From an uncultured Candidatus Saccharibacteria bacterium (GTDB lineage: Bacteria; Patescibacteriota; Saccharimonadia; Saccharimonadales; JAGQNJ01), in the NCBI GenBank assembly GCA_964584895.1, contig CAZPAW010000002.1, positions 130,748 through 194,747 on the forward strand: a stretch of DNA of 64,000 bases. Reading direction: 5' to 3'. The notes beneath the pieces were generated by a model. That model searched no databases. It was not told the DNA's origin and was given only the letters and a program-made list of their open reading frames with translations. Positions 28,553 through 35,339 of the stretch are shown piece after piece (the stretch's first letter is position 1; each line of letters opens with the position of its first letter). Position numbers and translations under genes: made by a program.

Positions 28553-29266
28553 TTGTCTGTATATAGCAATACTCAGATCAAACAAGCGATTAACTATGGT
28601 CATATAGTTTGTACCCCTTTTAATCCAAAACATGTTGCCCACGCCAGTCTTGATGTAACGCTAGGATTTTACTATTACCGAACAGAACGAGCGGGAGATC
28701 ACACAATTTACAATCCTTTCGACGAATCTGATGTTGAAAGATATTTCGAGGGCCCACATAAAGCAGTGCCTCACAAACAATGGTGCGACCAAAACGGCGC
28801 AAAACCATTAAAAGGTATTCCGATAGATCATCCAGTTATCCCTATCAAACCCGGCGAGCGAATACTTGCACATACCCACGAGTTTTTTGGCATAAAACCA
28901 CCCGGAGCGTACGAACTAAAATCTCGATCTAGCTGGGGACGTAACGGGATTGCAGTCTGCTTTGATGCCGGATGGGTTGACCCTGGCTACATAAACCGAT
29001 TAACCTTAGAAATATATAACCTAAACCATAAAGAAATCGTATTATTGCCGGTTGGCGAACGCATTGGACAAGCTGTTTTTCATGACACAGGGCAGGTAGA
29101 CGGTAACTACGGCGAAGGCCGAGAGAATGGATTTAGTGGTAAATACCAATCAGGAACAGATTTAGAAACATTAATAAGGCAATGGGAGCCTAGCCAAATG
29201 TTACCTAAAGCTTACAAAGACAAAAGATCGCTCCCAGTGAAAATAAAGGGACTAAAAGGTGATTAA
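28553..29266 (+). CDS. dcd: dCTP deaminase-family protein (dUTPase fold)
   Basis: Contains ...SLDVTLG... and ...KSRSSWGRNGIAVCFDAGWVDPGYINRLTLEIYNLN.... TTG start after GAGGG. Confidence 0.82.
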   Translation: MSVYSNTQIKQAINYGHIVCTPFNPKHVAHASLDVTLGFYYYRTERAGDHTIYNPFDESDVERYFEGPHKAVPHKQWCDQNGAKPLKGIPIDHPVIPIKPGERILAHTHEFFGIKPPGAYELKSRSSWGRNGIAVCFDAGWVDPGYINRLTLEIYNLNHKEIVLLPVGERIGQAVFHDTGQVDGNYGEGRENGFSGKYQSGTDLETLIRQWEPSQMLPKAYKDKRSLPVKIKGLKGD

Positions 29267-31601
29267 CGACCGCCATAACTTTGGTGGGGGAGATAATACC
29301 AACACAAATAAAGGAATATTTATCGTTATTGAAGGCACCGATGGATCGGGCAAAAGCACTCAATACAATTTATTAAAGAAGCACCTAGAAAAACTTGGAC
29401 ACGAAGTAGTGCCAATTCATTTTCCGCGCTATGATCAACCGTCAAGTTATTTTATCCGACAATATCTTGGCGGAGCCTACGGAACAGGCGATCAAGTAAA
29501 CCCTTATTCTAGCTCATTATTTTATGCTTTGGACAGGTATGAAGCGTCGTCTGAGATTAACAAAGCGCTTAACGATGGAAAAATTGTTTTGTGCGATAGA
29601 TTCGTAGGATCAAACATGGCGCATCAAGGTACAAAGTTTAATAATCCAGCCGAACGCAAAGGATATTTTATTTGGTTAGACAATCTCGAATTCGGGACGC
29701 TAGGGATTCCTCGACCTGATATTAGTTTTGTCCTTAATAATCCATTTGATGTAATATCATCCCGGCTTAGTATCAAACAAGAGTCTAGCACTCATGTGAA
29801 TAAAAAAGACGTCCACGAAGTTGATCCTGATCATATAAAAAAATCAATCGAAGTTTACCGTGATATGTGCGAGCTTTTTCCTAAAGATTTTGTAAGAATC
29901 GATTGCTCTAGAAACGGCATAATTTTATCACCTGATGATGTATTTAGTTTGTTATGGGAAAAGATTATGCCTAGACTGCCAATTAACAACCAACCAAATC
30001 CGGATATAACAGATGCTGATTATGTCATAAAGAATCAAAATGGATCATACTCTATCACAAGCGCCGGTAAAGAATTTCTCGAAGGCGCCATTACAAACAC
30101 AGATGACAATGTCTATGCATTCACAGGCGAAAAACTAACACCAATTACGGCTGCAGCTGCCATGGCTAGACTAAGTCGTCGTGGTGATGATATGCGCGTT
30201 ACGATTTTAGACGAATTTGCGAAGAATCTAGGTAAAGATGAAGGCCTATTGAAACGTGTCATAACTGCGTATGGCGATGACTCTGTACAGCAACTAGTCG
30301 GTCAACATCTAGTTATAGAAGAAGCATCAAATTTGCTTACAAAAAAACTAGAATGGGGAAGATTAGCTTCCTATCTAGAACAATCAACTAGATATATATA
30401 TTTTGACCAAAAAGACAAAAATGGACGCTACAAATACTACACCCCTCCAGAATTAGACAATCAAACAAAGCAAGTTTATGAGCAAACAATGGACGAACTA
30501 TTTGACAATTATTCAAAACTCGCCAGCGACCTAACGGACTACGTTAGGAATCAATCATCCGTGCCAGCATCAGAACAAGATATTGCCTGGAAAGGCGCAA
30601 CGAGAGCTCAAGCATGTGATGCAATAAGAGCAGTACTACCGGTAGCCACGAAATCGACTGTAGGAATATATGCTTCTGGGCAAGCCTTAGAAAGCTTAAT
30701 TATGCACTTGCAAAGTGATGAGCTTGCAGAAGCGAGGATTACAGGAAGCAAAATCCTAACAGAATCCAGAAAGGTTTTACCAGCATTTTTAGAACGTGCC
30801 GATAAGCCAGAAAGAGGTGGTGCGAATATTGCCTATAGAGCAAATACAGCAAAAAAGATAAGTCAACTTTCAGAAGCCTACCTTCCGAACACCAACGTTG
30901 GCTCAAACCAAGACGCCGTTCTAACTGATTACTGGCCAAAAAATGAGTTCGATCTGGTAGCGGACATGTTATATGATCAAAGCTCTCTGTCGCTCGAAGA
31001 TATTCGTAAAAATGTCGCTGAGTGGCCTTTTAAGCGTAAACAAGAGGTTTTTGATGCTTATATGGGAGAGAGGTTGAATCGACGCCATAAGCCGGGCAGA
31101 GCCCTAGAAAAGGCCCATTACAGTTGGGACATAGTCTGTGATTATGGAATATTTCGCGACCTACAACGTCATCGAATAGTCGATGACCTAGAGTGGCAAC
31201 AACTTACGCCTAGATATGGCTACGAAGTACCAGAATTAGTCGAAAAAGCAGGTCTTAGTGATATTTTTGAGCAAAGTTTTGATCTTAGTCTCAAGCTCTA
31301 CAGTGATTTACAGCAGGCAGGATACGCACTAGAGGCACAATATGCTACTTTGCTCGGCCACAGAATGCGTTGGAAGGTTACATACAACGCTAGGGAGGCT
31401 TTTCACCTACACGAACTACGCACCGCTCCTCAAGGGCATCCAGGCTATAGAAGGCTAGTAAAACAAATGCACGATCGGTTATGCGAAGTTCACCCATCAA
31501 TCGGCGCAGCAATGAAATTTGTTAATAAAGATGAGGATCCTGAATTAACTAGATTGGCAGCTGAACGCTACACCCAATTCAAACTTAGAGATCTGGGTTA
31601 G
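29259..31601 (+). CDS. fusion protein: dTMP kinase (N-terminal) + long-form flavin-dependent thymidylate synthase ThyX-like (C-terminal)
   Basis: Tmk P-loop ...FIVIEGTDGSGKSTQ... and ...CDRFVGSNMAHQG.... Thy1-like region ...AAAMARLSRRGDD..., ...GIFRDLQRHRIVDD..., ...REAFHLHELRTAPQGHPGYRRLV.... The GTG start overlaps the dcd stop by 8 nt. Confidence 0.8.
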   Translation: MINDRHNFGGGDNTNTNKGIFIVIEGTDGSGKSTQYNLLKKHLEKLGHEVVPIHFPRYDQPSSYFIRQYLGGAYGTGDQVNPYSSSLFYALDRYEASSEINKALNDGKIVLCDRFVGSNMAHQGTKFNNPAERKGYFIWLDNLEFGTLGIPRPDISFVLNNPFDVISSRLSIKQESSTHVNKKDVHEVDPDHIKKSIEVYRDMCELFPKDFVRIDCSRNGIILSPDDVFSLLWEKIMPRLPINNQPNPDITDADYVIKNQNGSYSITSAGKEFLEGAITNTDDNVYAFTGEKLTPITAAAAMARLSRRGDDMRVTILDEFAKNLGKDEGLLKRVITAYGDDSVQQLVGQHLVIEEASNLLTKKLEWGRLASYLEQSTRYIYFDQKDKNGRYKYYTPPELDNQTKQVYEQTMDELFDNYSKLASDLTDYVRNQSSVPASEQDIAWKGATRAQACDAIRAVLPVATKSTVGIYASGQALESLIMHLQSDELAEARITGSKILTESRKVLPAFLERADKPERGGANIAYRANTAKKISQLSEAYLPNTNVGSNQDAVLTDYWPKNEFDLVADMLYDQSSLSLEDIRKNVAEWPFKRKQEVFDAYMGERLNRRHKPGRALEKAHYSWDIVCDYGIFRDLQRHRIVDDLEWQQLTPRYGYEVPELVEKAGLSDIFEQSFDLSLKLYSDLQQAGYALEAQYATLLGHRMRWKVTYNAREAFHLHELRTAPQGHPGYRRLVKQMHDRLCEVHPSIGAAMKFVNKDEDPELTRLAAERYTQFKLRDLG

Positions 31602-31911
31602 GCATTCTATAAGTTACTTCCATAAGAGCACCCTCTTCATTAAAAACACGGTCAACGGATAAAACCATCTCACCAATGGCTAAAACGAGACTTGGGTCAT
31701 CTAGACGAGGCATAATATCGGCTTCGTCGATAAAAACTTCATGGGCAACAGAATGTATCTGGTTGTATCCAACAGCAAAATACCCAAGAATTGATCTTTT
31801 TGGTGCATAACCGTCTAATATCCGACCAAGATTTTCGGCAACATCTTTACCCATTCTTGCTCCAAGAGTCTCAACCGAATCGCTTGGGTTAGGTAACCTA
31901 ATTAGTGACAT
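31585..31911 (-). CDS. hypothetical acidic protein, 108 aa
   Basis: SD GAGGA 6 nt upstream of the ATG. The 3' end overlaps tmk-thyX by 17 nt (convergent). No motif recognised. Confidence 0.6.
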   Translation of the reverse strand: MSLIRLPNPSDSVETLGARMGKDVAENLGRILDGYAPKRSILGYFAVGYNQIHSVAHEVFIDEADIMPRLDDPSLVLAIGEMVLSVDRVFNEEGALMEVTYRMPNPDL

Positions 31912-31923
31912 AATTTCCTCATT

Positions 31924-32068
31924 AAAAAACCTCCGCTGATGGGAGGCTGATCTTTCATTATTTATTGCTTTATTGCAACAGGCCTCCGTACATATCGCTA
32001 CAAATGATCACGCGATCTGCGAGCATTGCTTTGTGGCTATATTTAACTGGTTGCATTAAATTTTTCAT
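31924..32068 (-). promoter_or_regulatory. candidate attenuator leader (32-codon leader ORF, antiterminator/terminator alternative)
   Basis: On the minus strand there is an ORF at complement(31970..32068), MKNLMQPVKYSHKAMLADRVIICSDMYGGLLQ. GGAGGC (31982-31987) can pair with GCCTCC (31942-31947). GCCTCC can alternatively pair with GGAGG (31930-31934), which is followed by T6 (31924-29), 13 nt before the start codon at 31911. Confidence 0.4.
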
Positions 32069-32099
32069 ACCGCATTTAAAATTACTCCTACAAAAATAA

Positions 32100-32128
32100 C
32101 TTGTCAAGAATTTTTTTTGTGATAAATT
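32100..32128. promoter_or_regulatory. candidate divergent promoter core
   Basis: The near-palindrome CTTGTCAAG (32100-32108) gives TTGTCA on the plus strand (16-nt spacer to TAAATT 32123-32128) and TTGACA on the minus strand (17-nt spacer to TAATTT 32084-32079). Consensus match only. Confidence 0.3.
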
Positions 32129-32137
32129 ATATATCTA

Positions 32138-32272
32138 ATGACTACAAATACGTTGAAGCAACAGATTTTACTCCTCGGCCTACAAGGGTTGTGCTTCAAC
32201 ATGGTTGAAGCCTAAGCGAACATCTCGCTTCTAGCACAACCGACATCAGACGGCTTCAACGAAGCCGATTTT
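32138..32272 (+). promoter_or_regulatory. candidate multi-state attenuator leader (25-codon leader ORF, four alternating 8-mers, terminator)
   Basis: GTTGAAGC at 32152 and 32204, GCTTCAAC at 32193 and 32253. Terminator-like CGGCTTC-AAC-GAAGCCG (32251-32267) followed by ATTTTT. ORF 32138-32215 encodes MTTNTLKQQILLLGLQGLCFNMVEA. Confidence 0.45.
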
Positions 32273-32292
32273 TAATTTATAAGGAGAAAAAT

Positions 32293-32766
32293 ATGGAAAT
32301 AACTAAAGAATATAGGAACAATCATAACAAGCTAGTATTCACACCAGATCCCAGTTATTCACTCGCCACTGTCAGTGGCACCCCAAAAACCACAATTATA
32401 GGTTCTAGGAATAAAACTAGTATTCGCGAGACTGAAGTCGATGAAATTTCAAGTATGAGTATTTTCGACTTTAAAGGAGTTTTATACGCTATGTCGATGG
32501 CATATTTAGAATCATCTAAAGCAAGTGTTCAAGAAAAAATAACCACAGAAGATGACCACACTGTATTAATGAGTGGAATTGTGAAACGAGCAACTCGATA
32601 TTACATTGATTCTAGCGAAATTGATCCAATCGTGAATTATTTAGAACTCAGGAACACCTGCAGATTCTCAGATGAAGAAGGGAATAGCGGTTCGTCGTTA
32701 CCCAGACAGCCAATTGTGCCAAATAACAGTGGTTCAATGGCAATAGAACTAATAAACGTGGCATAA
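32293..32766 (+). CDS. hypothetical protein, 157 aa
   Basis: Strong SD (AAGGAG 32281-32286). No motif recognised. Confidence 0.65.
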   Translation: MEITKEYRNNHNKLVFTPDPSYSLATVSGTPKTTIIGSRNKTSIRETEVDEISSMSIFDFKGVLYAMSMAYLESSKASVQEKITTEDDHTVLMSGIVKRATRYYIDSSEIDPIVNYLELRNTCRFSDEEGNSGSSLPRQPIVPNNSGSMAIELINVA

Positions 32767-32789
32767 ATTAAATATAAGAAGGAGTAGAT

Positions 32790-33008
32790 ATGAGATTTTC
32801 AATAGAAGGAGAAACAGGACACGGAGATGGGGGCATTCAGCCAGATAATGTCGTGAGAATTGAAAGAATTCTTCCAGCGGCATCAGAAGCAATTGGAAAA
32901 CCCGCAATACGAGGTTACGGTATTTCTTATACTGGGAATGATAGGGACACAATAGCCCCAGATGTCATAACACCTCCGACACACTCAATAGTCGAGGTAA
33001 TAGCTTGA
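32790..33008 (+). CDS. hypothetical acidic protein, 72 aa
   Basis: Strong SD (AAGGAG) 6 nt upstream. No motif recognised. Confidence 0.55.
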   Translation: MRFSIEGETGHGDGGIQPDNVVRIERILPAASEAIGKPAIRGYGISYTGNDRDTIAPDVITPPTHSIVEVIA

Positions 33009-33115
33009 CAGGTTTTCATATAATAGTAGGATAAAAAACATGGGCAAGATAATAATTATTGAAATTATTGAAGGAACCGTAAACGCGGAGTAGTGTTAAT
33101 ATTTATAAGCTAACG

Positions 33116-33139
33116 AACCCCGCAACCAGCGGGGTTTTT
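33116..33139 (+). terminator. intrinsic-terminator-like hairpin
   Basis: AACCCCGC-AACCA-GCGGGGTT plus a T-run (33135-33139), 20 nt before ATG 33159. Confidence 0.65.
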
Positions 33140-33158
33140 AAATAATAAGGAGTAGATA

Positions 33159-33542
33159 ATGAGTTTTGATCACAATAGTCTAGAATACAGCACACCTGAT
33201 CACGAAGCTGCAATTGATTTACGTGAATTAGGATTACAAGAGCGGCAATTAGTTACTCAACAGCTTGCAGACTTTATGATAAGTGGCTTTAATGATAGTC
33301 AACTAATAGTGGCCACAAGCTCAGTTGAATTTTTATACGCAAGAGCATCTACCGTAAACAGTCCTTATACCTATTTTGAAGCGGATGTTTTTGCAAGAGC
33401 AGCTTTGTTGGCTATTAATGAACGCGATTTACCTGAAAAGCCTATACTTACTAATCGGATAAAAAAATCTAGGAATGTATCACAAGGCAGGGCTGGATGC
33501 ACGGACGTCCCAGAACTAAAACTAATTGACGCTGCATCATAA
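33159..33542 (+). CDS. hypothetical protein, 127 aa
   Basis: Strong SD (AAGGAG 33147-33152). No motif recognised. Confidence 0.6.
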   Translation: MSFDHNSLEYSTPDHEAAIDLRELGLQERQLVTQQLADFMISGFNDSQLIVATSSVEFLYARASTVNSPYTYFEADVFARAALLAINERDLPEKPILTNRIKKSRNVSQGRAGCTDVPELKLIDAAS

Positions 33543-33566
33543 CTCTGTTAAGATAATAATGTTAAT

Positions 33567-33675
33567 TACCAAAGACAGCGATGGTCAAATCGACTTAATC
33601 ATATCGCCGAGGCAAAAACATCAACTTTTTGTATCGTACGTTTTTAAAAGTCTTTGGTAGCCCAAAGACTTTTTT
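33567..33675 (+). promoter_or_regulatory. candidate rplJ (L10) leader with antiterminator/terminator alternative
   Basis: A 12-bp hairpin AAAAGTCTTTGG-TAGC-CCAAAGACTTTT plus T-run (33646-33675). TACCAAAGAC (33567-33576) can pair instead with GTCTTTGGTA (33650-33659). It lies 45 nt upstream of rplJ. Confidence 0.5.
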
Positions 33676-33719
33676 AGTCTTCGAACATTTATATTAAAAA
33701 TAATTAAAGAAAGGAAGAT

Positions 33720-34829: not shown

Positions 34830-35339
34830 ATGGCGGATGTATCAGACAAACAAATAAAACGACTAAAAGTCTTACTTCAGGAATCTGAAACTAGTTTAGC
34901 GGCTGCGAAGGAGCTGCTTGTTAGCCTTATAGGTGACGACGAAAGTGTCCCAGTGATTCCGAGTGAAGATATCGCCGGAAAGATCATAGAAGGCGTCTTT
35001 GACGGACAGAACATGGTCGGTAGCGATGGCAAGACATACCCAGTTCCCGCGAACTATGCCTCAAAATCTAAACTCGTTGAAGGCGATATTTTAAAACTAA
35101 CAATAGCCGATGATGGGGCGTTTTTGTATAAACAAATTGGACCAGTCGCAAGAACACAAAAAGTCGGTACGCTTGTAATGGAAAGTGGTCATTATTTTGT
35201 AAATGTAGATAAACAAAAATACCGAGTATTGCTTGCTAGTGTAACCTACTTTAAGGCTAAACCTGGCGATCAAGTTAGTATTAATGTTCCAGAAAGTAAC
35301 GACAACGCCGAATGGGCAGCACTAGAAGCCGCACTATAA
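34830..35339 (+). CDS. hypothetical protein, 169 aa (N-terminal helix, beta-rich C-terminal part)
   Basis: Clean ORF where rpoB would be expected after rplL. No motif recognised. Confidence 0.6.
   Translation: MADVSDKQIKRLKVLLQESETSLAAAKELLVSLIGDDESVPVIPSEDIAGKIIEGVFDGQNMVGSDGKTYPVPANYASKSKLVEGDILKLTIADDGAFLYKQIGPVARTQKVGTLVMESGHYFVNVDKQKYRVLLASVTYFKAKPGDQVSINVPESNDNAEWAALEAAL

Follow-up and report, generated by a model that had tools for sequence, protein, structure and literature searches.

The two leaders that diverge from a shared promoter core in the variable stretch between thyX and rplJ of a Saccharibacteria (TM7) genome are probably ribosome-mediated transcription attenuators, one for each arm, that would read the supply of charged branched-chain tRNA. 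They are located in a contig segment of 64,000 nucleotides (CAZPAW010000002.1, assembly GCA_964584895.1, positions 130,748 to 194,747), which we refer to as the window and whose numbering is used throughout unless a locus number (L) is given. An earlier note, made from the letters of this stretch only, had proposed attenuation of the trp/his/leu type on both arms from one divergent core; its coordinates for repeated 8-mers, helices, open reading frames (ORFs), terminators and promoter core were all correct when rechecked in the sequence, and the proposal itself is supported in silico by comparative data. Ribosome-mediated attenuation is textbook biology. What we regard as the strongest evidence against a chance arrangement in this case is conservation and covariation in other genomes, i.e., the plus-strand leader has counterparts at more than 130 Saccharibacteria loci in which the antiterminator, the terminator and a long-range helix (P2) covary, and in which the codon run of the leader ORF tracks the downstream biosynthetic gene.

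The plus leader (32138-32273, plus strand) comprises an ORF, the helices P2 and P3, an antiterminator (3:4) and a terminator. The ORF, MTTNTLKQQILLLGLQGLCFNMVEA and a stop (32138..32215, 25 codons), contains six Leu codons (32153, 32168-76, 32180 and 32189) and stops immediately past segment 3. Two copies of the 8-mer GTTGAAGC (32152-59 and 32204-11) alternate with two copies of GCTTCAAC, the first of them being segment 2 (32193..32200) and the second found at 32253-60; counting both strands these four are the only ones in the 64 kb, where about 1.8 were expected, and all of them fall inside 109 nt. Segment 1, CGTTGAAGCA (32151..32160), where the motif TGAAGCA (MKQ/VKQ) is frequent in the family, has segment 2 (32192-32200) as its partner in untranslated RNA. 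The apical part of this 1:2 hairpin is made by p0, CGGCCU (32176..32181), pairing with GGGUUG (32186-91), and p0 is also a competitor of P2. Alternatively, segment 2 pairs with segment 3 (hairpin 2:3). Segment 3, GTTGAAGCC (32204..32212), is the 5' strand of the antiterminator, with 32252-60 as its partner, and would be covered by a ribosome standing at the stop codon. The 5' arm of P2, GGTTGTGCT (32187..32195), lies inside codons Gly17 to Phe20 and is the candidate anti-antiterminator strand; the 3' arm is AGCACAACC (32233..32241), of which CAACC alternatively pairs with GGTTG at 32203-07. The P3 hairpin, AAGCGA-ACATC-TCGCTT, occupies 32214..32230 (arms 32214-19/32225-30). Finally, a terminator scan found the intrinsic terminator CGGCTTC-AAC-GAAGCCG followed by ATTTTT (32251..32273, hairpin 32251-67), whose 5' arm shares nucleotides with segment 4 (32252-60). 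Compared with its shuffles, the plus leader has the better fold (z = -2.95), and 2 of 200 of them were equally good.

Relatives were fetched via the neighboring Tmk-ThyX gene, as the gene behind the plus leader (p157) matched only itself among 5.8 billion proteins. The family was collected with an nhmmer profile of the region, which retrieved the plus leader from 15 further Saccharibacteria genomes, in every one between thyX and rplJ, and with a 27-nt degenerate pattern that was scanned over metagenome contigs and found at least 120 of them. Identical contigs were also tried as comparison material and added nothing. Nearly all members have an ORF of 24–37 codons with the peptide motif (L/I)-run...GLCFxMVEA, followed by 0–6 residues. 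Base pairs were counted in a 114-sequence alignment (A3). The antiterminator 3:4 was paired in 98.8% of cells, with compensatory changes at five pairs, and 107 of 115 members had 10/10 or 9/10 of its pairs. P2 was paired in 96.6% of cells, one of its pairs changing from C-G (88) to U-A (23) with three breaks. Jointly, both helices reached 97.3% of paired cells and nine pairs changed on both sides, a result attained by none of 500 shuffles, and when partners were slid as a control the pairing fell to 26–47%. MAFFT alignments were unreliable at segment 1, P3 and the 3' arm of the terminator, and P3 and the terminator were scored per sequence instead. The terminators had on average 8.3 bp and -10.9 kcal/mol (shuffles: -1.9), and four of their stem positions changed in a compensatory way. 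At the P3 site, 106 of 113 members had a hairpin with 4 bp or more, made with 75 different 5'-arm sequences and with a mean energy of -6.3 versus -2.1 kcal/mol for shuffles. Segment 2 was pairable in 94% of cells, a value that is uninformative on covariation because the search pattern fixed its sequence, and partly for the same reason hairpin 2:3, the p0:p hairpin (88% paired) and the alternative 3:q pairing were pairable with little covariation. The earlier note had described helices 1:2, 2:3, 3:4 and 4:5 as mutually exclusive; covariation supports 3:4 and the terminator (4:5), but 1:2 is weakly conserved (60% paired in the MAFFT alignment). In the same note the helix 32187-95/32233-41 was listed as an extra one. 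It does exist, but it is the best supported of all, namely P2, the putative anti-antiterminator.

One variant of the plus leader (L009 10234-10365) is devoid of segments 4 and 5, and its terminator makes use of P2's 3' arm (AGCCC...GGGCT + T6); it appears to be a plain four-segment attenuator.

Which amino acid the codon run encodes (the run being taken as the nine codons before GLCF) goes with the biosynthetic gene downstream. Runs of Leu were found upstream of LeuA-family genes in 13 of 13 loci and runs of Ile (IIIISP, IIIPGI, IIIIPDI and others) upstream of IlvA-like (threonine-dehydratase-like) genes in six of seven, while mixed Val/Ile/Leu runs precede an adjacent gene for the large subunit of acetolactate synthase, IlvB, for example in L085, L109 and L171 (identified with 704 bits, the cutoff being 538). 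At the thyX-rplJ site of L109 and L147, an ilvB-ilvN-ridA-ilvA operon has the leader at its head. About three quarters of the plus members, including that of the window, precede small genes without assigned function, and for some of these leaders ilvB, ilvA or leuA is found within 1.7 kb downstream.

The promoter core is the palindrome CTTGTCAAG (32100..32108, both strands), in which the two -35 hexamers overlap, TTGTCA at 32101-06 for the plus strand and TTGACA at c32107-02 for the minus strand; a -10-like hexamer follows either of them at a distance of 17 nt. On the plus side this is a predicted extended -10, TGaTAAATT (32120..32128), with the ATG 9 nt further on, and on the minus side a predicted TAATTT (32079..32084, minus strand), 17 nt past TTGACA and with the minus ATG 10 nt on. 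A TTGTCAA/TTGACAA core separates paired leaders in 16 loci. The sigma-70-like promoter geometry TTGNNN-N16-18-TWNNNT-N6-11-ATG was found in 69 of 113 plus-family members (61%) versus 1.4% of random anchor positions, and because the ATG comes 6–11 nt past the -10 box so much more often than at random, the plus leader ORF is most likely leaderless or nearly so.

To follow what the position of the ribosome does to the RNA we modelled a ribosome whose masked footprint, counted from the first A-site base, runs from -15 to +12 nt, and in 111 members only the RNA 3' of this ribosome was folded, with codon positions counted from the Gly of GLCF. An RNA cut after segment 4 stands for the moment before the 3' arm of the terminator exists. 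In this cut RNA 3:4 was the minimum-free-energy structure in 90–95% of the 111 members when the A site was at -3 to +2 (in the window Gly14, Leu15, Gln16, Gly17, Leu18 and Cys19), in 65% at -4 and in 17% at -6/-5, where P2, 2:3 and P3 formed instead; from +3 onward, with segment 3 masked, it was found in 0%. In full-length folds the terminator was present at 0.9–1.0 for all A-site positions except -3 to +1. The untranslated RNA of the window folded with 1:2 and 3:4 when cut after segment 4, and with the terminator at full length. Hence the proposal of the earlier note that an untranslated leader favors read-through holds for the cut RNA, in the window and in about half of the family, but not for the full-length equilibrium fold. 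Equilibrium folding of the full-length window leader with ribosome masks never gave 3:4, and the pairings enclosing the ribosome (1:4, 1:2) that such masked folds produced were set aside as sterically doubtful. A pseudoknotted ON state (P2 together with 3:4) was also considered and became needless once folding at the decision point gave 3:4 at -3 to +2, although it could still apply to stalls further upstream.

The folding outcomes suggest a classical logic in which P2 and 2:3 would act as anti-antiterminator, 3:4 as antiterminator and 4:5 as terminator. The plus transcript would begin at the ATG (32138) or next to it, and its 25-codon leader would be translated by a 70S ribosome. With plentiful Leu-tRNA the ribosome would reach codon 20 or beyond, or the stop at 32213, and cover segment 3 (32204-12), leaving segment 4 to pair with segment 5, so that the terminator (32251-67) would form and transcription would stop before p157. 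With scarce Leu-tRNA the ribosome would linger at the last Leu codons (Leu13/15/18), covering segment 2 as well as the 5' strand of P2. With both P2 and 2:3 thus prevented from locking it, segment 3 would pair with segment 4 as soon as this is made, giving the antiterminator and letting the polymerase read through. This stalled state, in which P2 (5' arm) and segment 2 are masked by the ribosome itself, was absent from the earlier note. With the ribosome far upstream, P2, 2:3 and P3 would form, and then the terminator.

The minus leader (c32068-31924) is a diverged member of a second leader family. Some 25 loci belong to this family, and in most of them the leader diverges from a plus leader with overlapping -35 boxes, a layout also seen in L010, L069, L077, L078, L088, L108, L111, L147, L170, L009 and more. 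Its members have a start codon (often GTG) 7–9 nt past the -10 box and an ORF of ~24–34 codons with a Val/Ile/Leu-rich end, ..G(F/L)V(L/I)(V/I)(V/I).., and a segment GGTTGGAGC that can pair with ACTCCAACC in the 5' arm of the terminator; the terminator and T-run come next (ACCGGACTCCAACC...GGGxxCGG + T-run). In the window the minus ORF, MKNLMQPVKYSHKAMLADRVIICSDMYGGLLQ and a stop (31970..32068, minus strand), has Val-Ile-Ile as codons 20–22. Segment A, GGAGGC (31982..31987), within codons 28–30, is the counterpart of GGTTGGAGC and the 5' strand of the candidate antiterminator, and the terminator (31924..31948) is formed by B, GCCTCC (c31947-42), and C, GGAGG (c31934-30), followed by T6 (c31929-24), 12–13 nt before the p108 gene; the scan found a terminator-like site at c31948-31928. 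The minus arm had to be studied via its own DNA family because the p108 protein family is tiny (five known protein clusters; p108 has four related ones). The minus leaders of the window and of its two closest relatives, L006 and L007, aligned to the second family with E = 2e-20, with RVIIC in the place of the FVLI run and with GGAGGC/GCCTCC/GGAGG as the three segments, and in both relatives the terminator stem is kept while its loops differ. The pairing A:B is possible in the few sequences available. In the model of the window it could form as long as the A site had not passed codon 24, and it was lost at every position from codon 25 through the stop. Thus the same logic may operate in a simpler form. 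A ribosome at codon 25 or beyond, or at the stop, would cover A and B would pair with C, causing termination, while one held at Val20-Ile21-Ile22 or earlier would leave A free for B and p108 would be transcribed.

A third leader flavor, MSTKSIILGLVIIGSLERG / MTTAMFSYVLVILGSKERG plus a terminator, was seen upstream of a RidA-like gene in L099 (7052-7155) and L118 (194-299), and also in L070 (3910-4018) and L034 (4515-4624).

Several observations weigh against attenuation on both arms. Segment 2 was fixed by the scan pattern, as were portions of P2 and of segment 3, which limits the covariation evidence there, and the near-fixed peptide end GLCFxMVEA could also reflect a function of the peptide itself. 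For the window alone the equilibrium fold prefers the terminator at every ribosome position, by 2.4–4.5 kcal/mol, which means that read-through would depend on the antiterminator forming first, i.e., on co-transcriptional kinetics. The first three Leu codons (-6 to -4) are mostly outside the predicted read-through zone under the assumed footprint. There is also a mismatch between the six Leu codons of the plus leader and its orphan cargo, and the cargo genes of the window are without any tie to branched-chain amino acids. As for the minus arm, its membership in the second family and the divergent arrangement agree with the earlier note, but the folding energy is not exceptional (z = +0.8), GTG instead of ATG starts had to be assumed in the family, and in L006 and L007 the ORF, of the same length, has 11–12 codons changed non-synonymously and three synonymously. 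With few sequences, mostly non-synonymous change in the ORF and a cargo without assigned function, the minus arm is less secure than the plus arm.

The cargo of the window raises the alternative that retains most credit, although we consider it rather unlikely: that the copies found here are relics, which after the replacement of a leuA-like cargo would be left as a promoter and a leaky terminator devoid of any amino-acid meaning. The plus leader is followed by the orphan gene p157 (32293-32766, plus strand, Shine-Dalgarno AGGAG from 32283) and the minus leader by p108 (31585..31911, minus strand), a gene without assigned function and with the tiny family mentioned above. No LeuA, IlvB or IlvA homologue was found within the 64 kb, nor did a tblastn search detect a remnant of a leuA pseudogene in the window. 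L006 and L007 carry at the position of p157, behind a shared Shine-Dalgarno, a gene for a 427-aa 2-isopropylmalate-synthase-like (leuA-like) protein with an HMGL-like domain, and the swap begins precisely at the start codon. It seems, then, that the biosynthetic cargo of the leaders has been replaced by orphan genes in this genome. However, the ORF, the Leu codons, P2, 3:4 and the terminator are all intact. Compared with L006 and L007, the nucleotide identity of the plus leader (90%) equals that of rplL (89–90%), with values of 92% for the promoter core, 82–83% for the minus leader, 83–85% for rplJ, 76–77% for thyX and at most 77% for the p108 gene. Besides, the fact that some three quarters of the family stand before non-biosynthetic small genes suggests maintenance over decay.

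The same retention of the leader, which 94 of 121 non-redundant loci show before unrelated orphan genes, could also be explained if the 25-aa plus peptide (...LLLGLxGLCFxMVEA) were a functional micropeptide with its own promoter and terminator, the downstream genes being expressed independently. The peptide is hydrophobic and its C-terminal motif is near-invariant in more than 100 loci. Still, the nucleotides coding for the invariant residues are precisely those of P2, 2:3 and 3:4, which covary, and whether the variable part is a Leu, an Ile or a mixed run goes with the downstream enzyme, which a peptide function does not predict. The Shine-Dalgarno and start codon of the cargo come within ~20 nt past the terminator with no separate promoter-like site, and we consider this explanation improbable. 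A type I toxin was also tried as a reading of the hydrophobic peptide and rejected, since the hydrophobic stretch has only ~14 residues and the codon-run rule favors attenuation. There is very little to be said for the three-way junction P2/2:3/P3 being a ligand- or protein-binding RNA (riboswitch-like) with an incidental ORF. The strong sequence conservation in the junction, the conservation of P3 in shape only and the many downstream genes unrelated to amino-acid synthesis would fit it. Against it, no Rfam match to a riboswitch or T-box architecture was obtained; what is conserved instead is the ORF, with its start beside the promoter and its stop just past segment 3 or within P3, and the identity of the codon run follows the gene. 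Moreover, the plus ORF is kept in L006 and L007, and its LLL run shows only synonymous changes among the three closest genomes (TTA CTC CTC / CTG CTA CTC / CTA CTG CTA). That the 8-mer repeats are a chance cluster, or a thyX-side terminator plus promoter, is practically discounted, for even if four copies in 64 kb are unremarkable by themselves (9 of 100 shuffles reach four), their confinement to 109 nt, the fold z-score and the conservation with covariation in more than 130 loci already refute it.

Ribosome-mediated attenuation thus remains the reading that we prefer, and both leader families appear to work like known attenuators while lying outside every catalogued family. The features shared with the class are a codon run for the amino acid of the product (at the family level), an intrinsic terminator on both arms, a maintained antiterminator that shares a strand with the terminator (3:4) and, in the modelling, different folds for stalled and terminating ribosomes. 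The earlier note had recognized no known Rfam family, and our covariance-model search of the window and 11 member loci agreed with it, giving no match at gathering score except for L10_leader elsewhere. The sub-threshold matches to freshwater-2 (19.9 vs. 49.9 bits), RsaJ and MIR2084, and one to Trp_leader at 33063-33142 (20.6 bits against a cutoff of 41), were at chance level. Our literature searches turned up neither an account of attenuators in Saccharibacteria or in the candidate phyla radiation at large nor one of either leader family.

The closest paradigm is that of the enterobacterial Leu_leader (RF00512) and the trp/his leaders, which likewise have a short ORF with a run of Leu codons (in the Leu_leader) and mutually exclusive terminator, antiterminator and anti-antiterminator. 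In the Leu_leader, too, the position of the ribosome decides, and the plus leader of the relatives is likewise found upstream of a leuA-family gene. In contrast, the plus family has no sequence or covariance-model similarity to it, the host phylum is Saccharibacteria, the ORF is predicted to be leaderless (that of the Leu_leader is preceded by a Shine-Dalgarno), there are 5–6 interacting segments with a long-range P2 closing a three-way junction, and a single scaffold, fixed in its peptide end, serves for Leu, Ile and mixed runs alike. In Corynebacterium glutamicum the leaderless ilvBNC attenuator has its transcription start one nucleotide away from the leader's start codon; this leader encodes the Ile/Val/Leu-rich peptide MTIIRLVVVTARRLP and forms three hairpins, anti-antiterminator, antiterminator and terminator (PMC11857589). 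It controls acetolactate synthase, as the plus family would in L085, L109 and L171; sequence, peptide and phylum differ, and the likeness is one by description (PMC11857589). Unlike it, the Saccharibacteria leaders are also found as divergent pairs and before non-biosynthetic genes. In mycobacteria, leaderless polycysteine short ORFs at operon 5' ends are presented as Cys-responsive attenuators in a preprint (bioRxiv 10.1101/834739); by that description they are alike in the leaderless sensing of a single amino acid, and differ in amino acid and phylum. Similarly, a study of the Staphylococcus aureus ilv-leu operon (PMC5794164) describes a Leu-rich attenuator peptide on branched-chain synthesis genes, to which the plus family is alike in having a Leu-rich leader that would attenuate branched-chain synthesis, without sequence relation.

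As to what these leaders are for, we offer only tentatively that they are modular sensors of branched-chain tRNA charging, one RNA/peptide scaffold with retuned runs that is often paired on one core, which have been co-opted to induce the lineage-specific accessory genes of the thyX-rplJ site at low supply. In genomes that apparently have lost the biosynthetic genes at the locus, attenuation might then act as a general nutrient signal and not as biosynthesis feedback. The material amounts to two, possibly three, new candidate cis-regulatory families with more than 130 examples and a codon-run-to-gene rule, it suggests leaderless translation in Saccharibacteria, and it indicates that some of these bacteria keep an ilvB-ilvN-ridA-ilvA operon or leuA under predicted leader control. 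The features that stand out are the fixed scaffold with swappable regulatory codons, the divergent putative attenuators on overlapping -35 boxes and the retention before orphan genes. If copies of the type found in the window still respond to tRNA charging, they would provide a handle on nutrient sensing in reduced, poorly cultivable bacteria along with a ready-made rule for annotating intergenic regions by the hundred.

The gene order rplA - dcd - tmk/thyX fusion - variable stretch - L10 leader - rplJ - rplL is recurrent in 54 species-level genomes. The thyX-rplJ gap (31602-33550 in the window) is a hotspot of variable gene content, 0.2–5 kb long in 54 Saccharibacteria genomes (L006-L059), and its contents differ by genome, with ilvB-ilvN-ridA-ilvA or a leuA-like gene in some and orphan genes in others. 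In the window it contains p108 on the minus strand and then p157, p72 and p127. No Pfam match was obtained for p108, p157, p72, the 169-aa protein p169 or the divergent-side protein of L108. The leuA-like proteins behind many Leu leaders (L006 10024-11307, L007 10036-11319, L122) are short (~400–450 aa) and do not have the LeuA allosteric/dimerization domain, and in L006 and L007 the gene is alone in the island, with no neighboring leu genes. A family of 55–120-aa proteins that share the motif (V/I)PY(A/S)GTE and end in ...ANLPA was also detected, with members in L015, L017, L020, L033, L071, L078, L113, L140 and others; a plus leader is immediately followed by such a protein in 17 of 109 loci, versus 1 of 109 in an antisense control, and p72 (32790-33008) has a weak form of the motif, ISYTGND. 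Between p72 and p127 there is a terminator-like hairpin, CCCCGC-AACCA-GCGGGG + T5, at ~33108-33130, and the ribosome-binding-site region ATAAGAAGGAGTAGATA occurs twice, at 32774-90 and 33142-58.

Around the hotspot, a 780-aa fusion of thymidylate kinase and a thymidylate synthase ThyX (Thy1) domain (29259-31601) overlaps the end of dcd and is kept in the 54 genomes at 48–86% identity. On the other side, the L10 leader (Rfam RF00557, 72.3 bits) is found at 33551-33685, upstream of rplJ, and also in L010, L032, L156 and L170. Further on, between rplL and dnaX, the 169-aa protein (34830-35339) is 97–98% identical in L006 and L007 and 65–78% across the phylum, being more strongly conserved than ribosomal protein L10.

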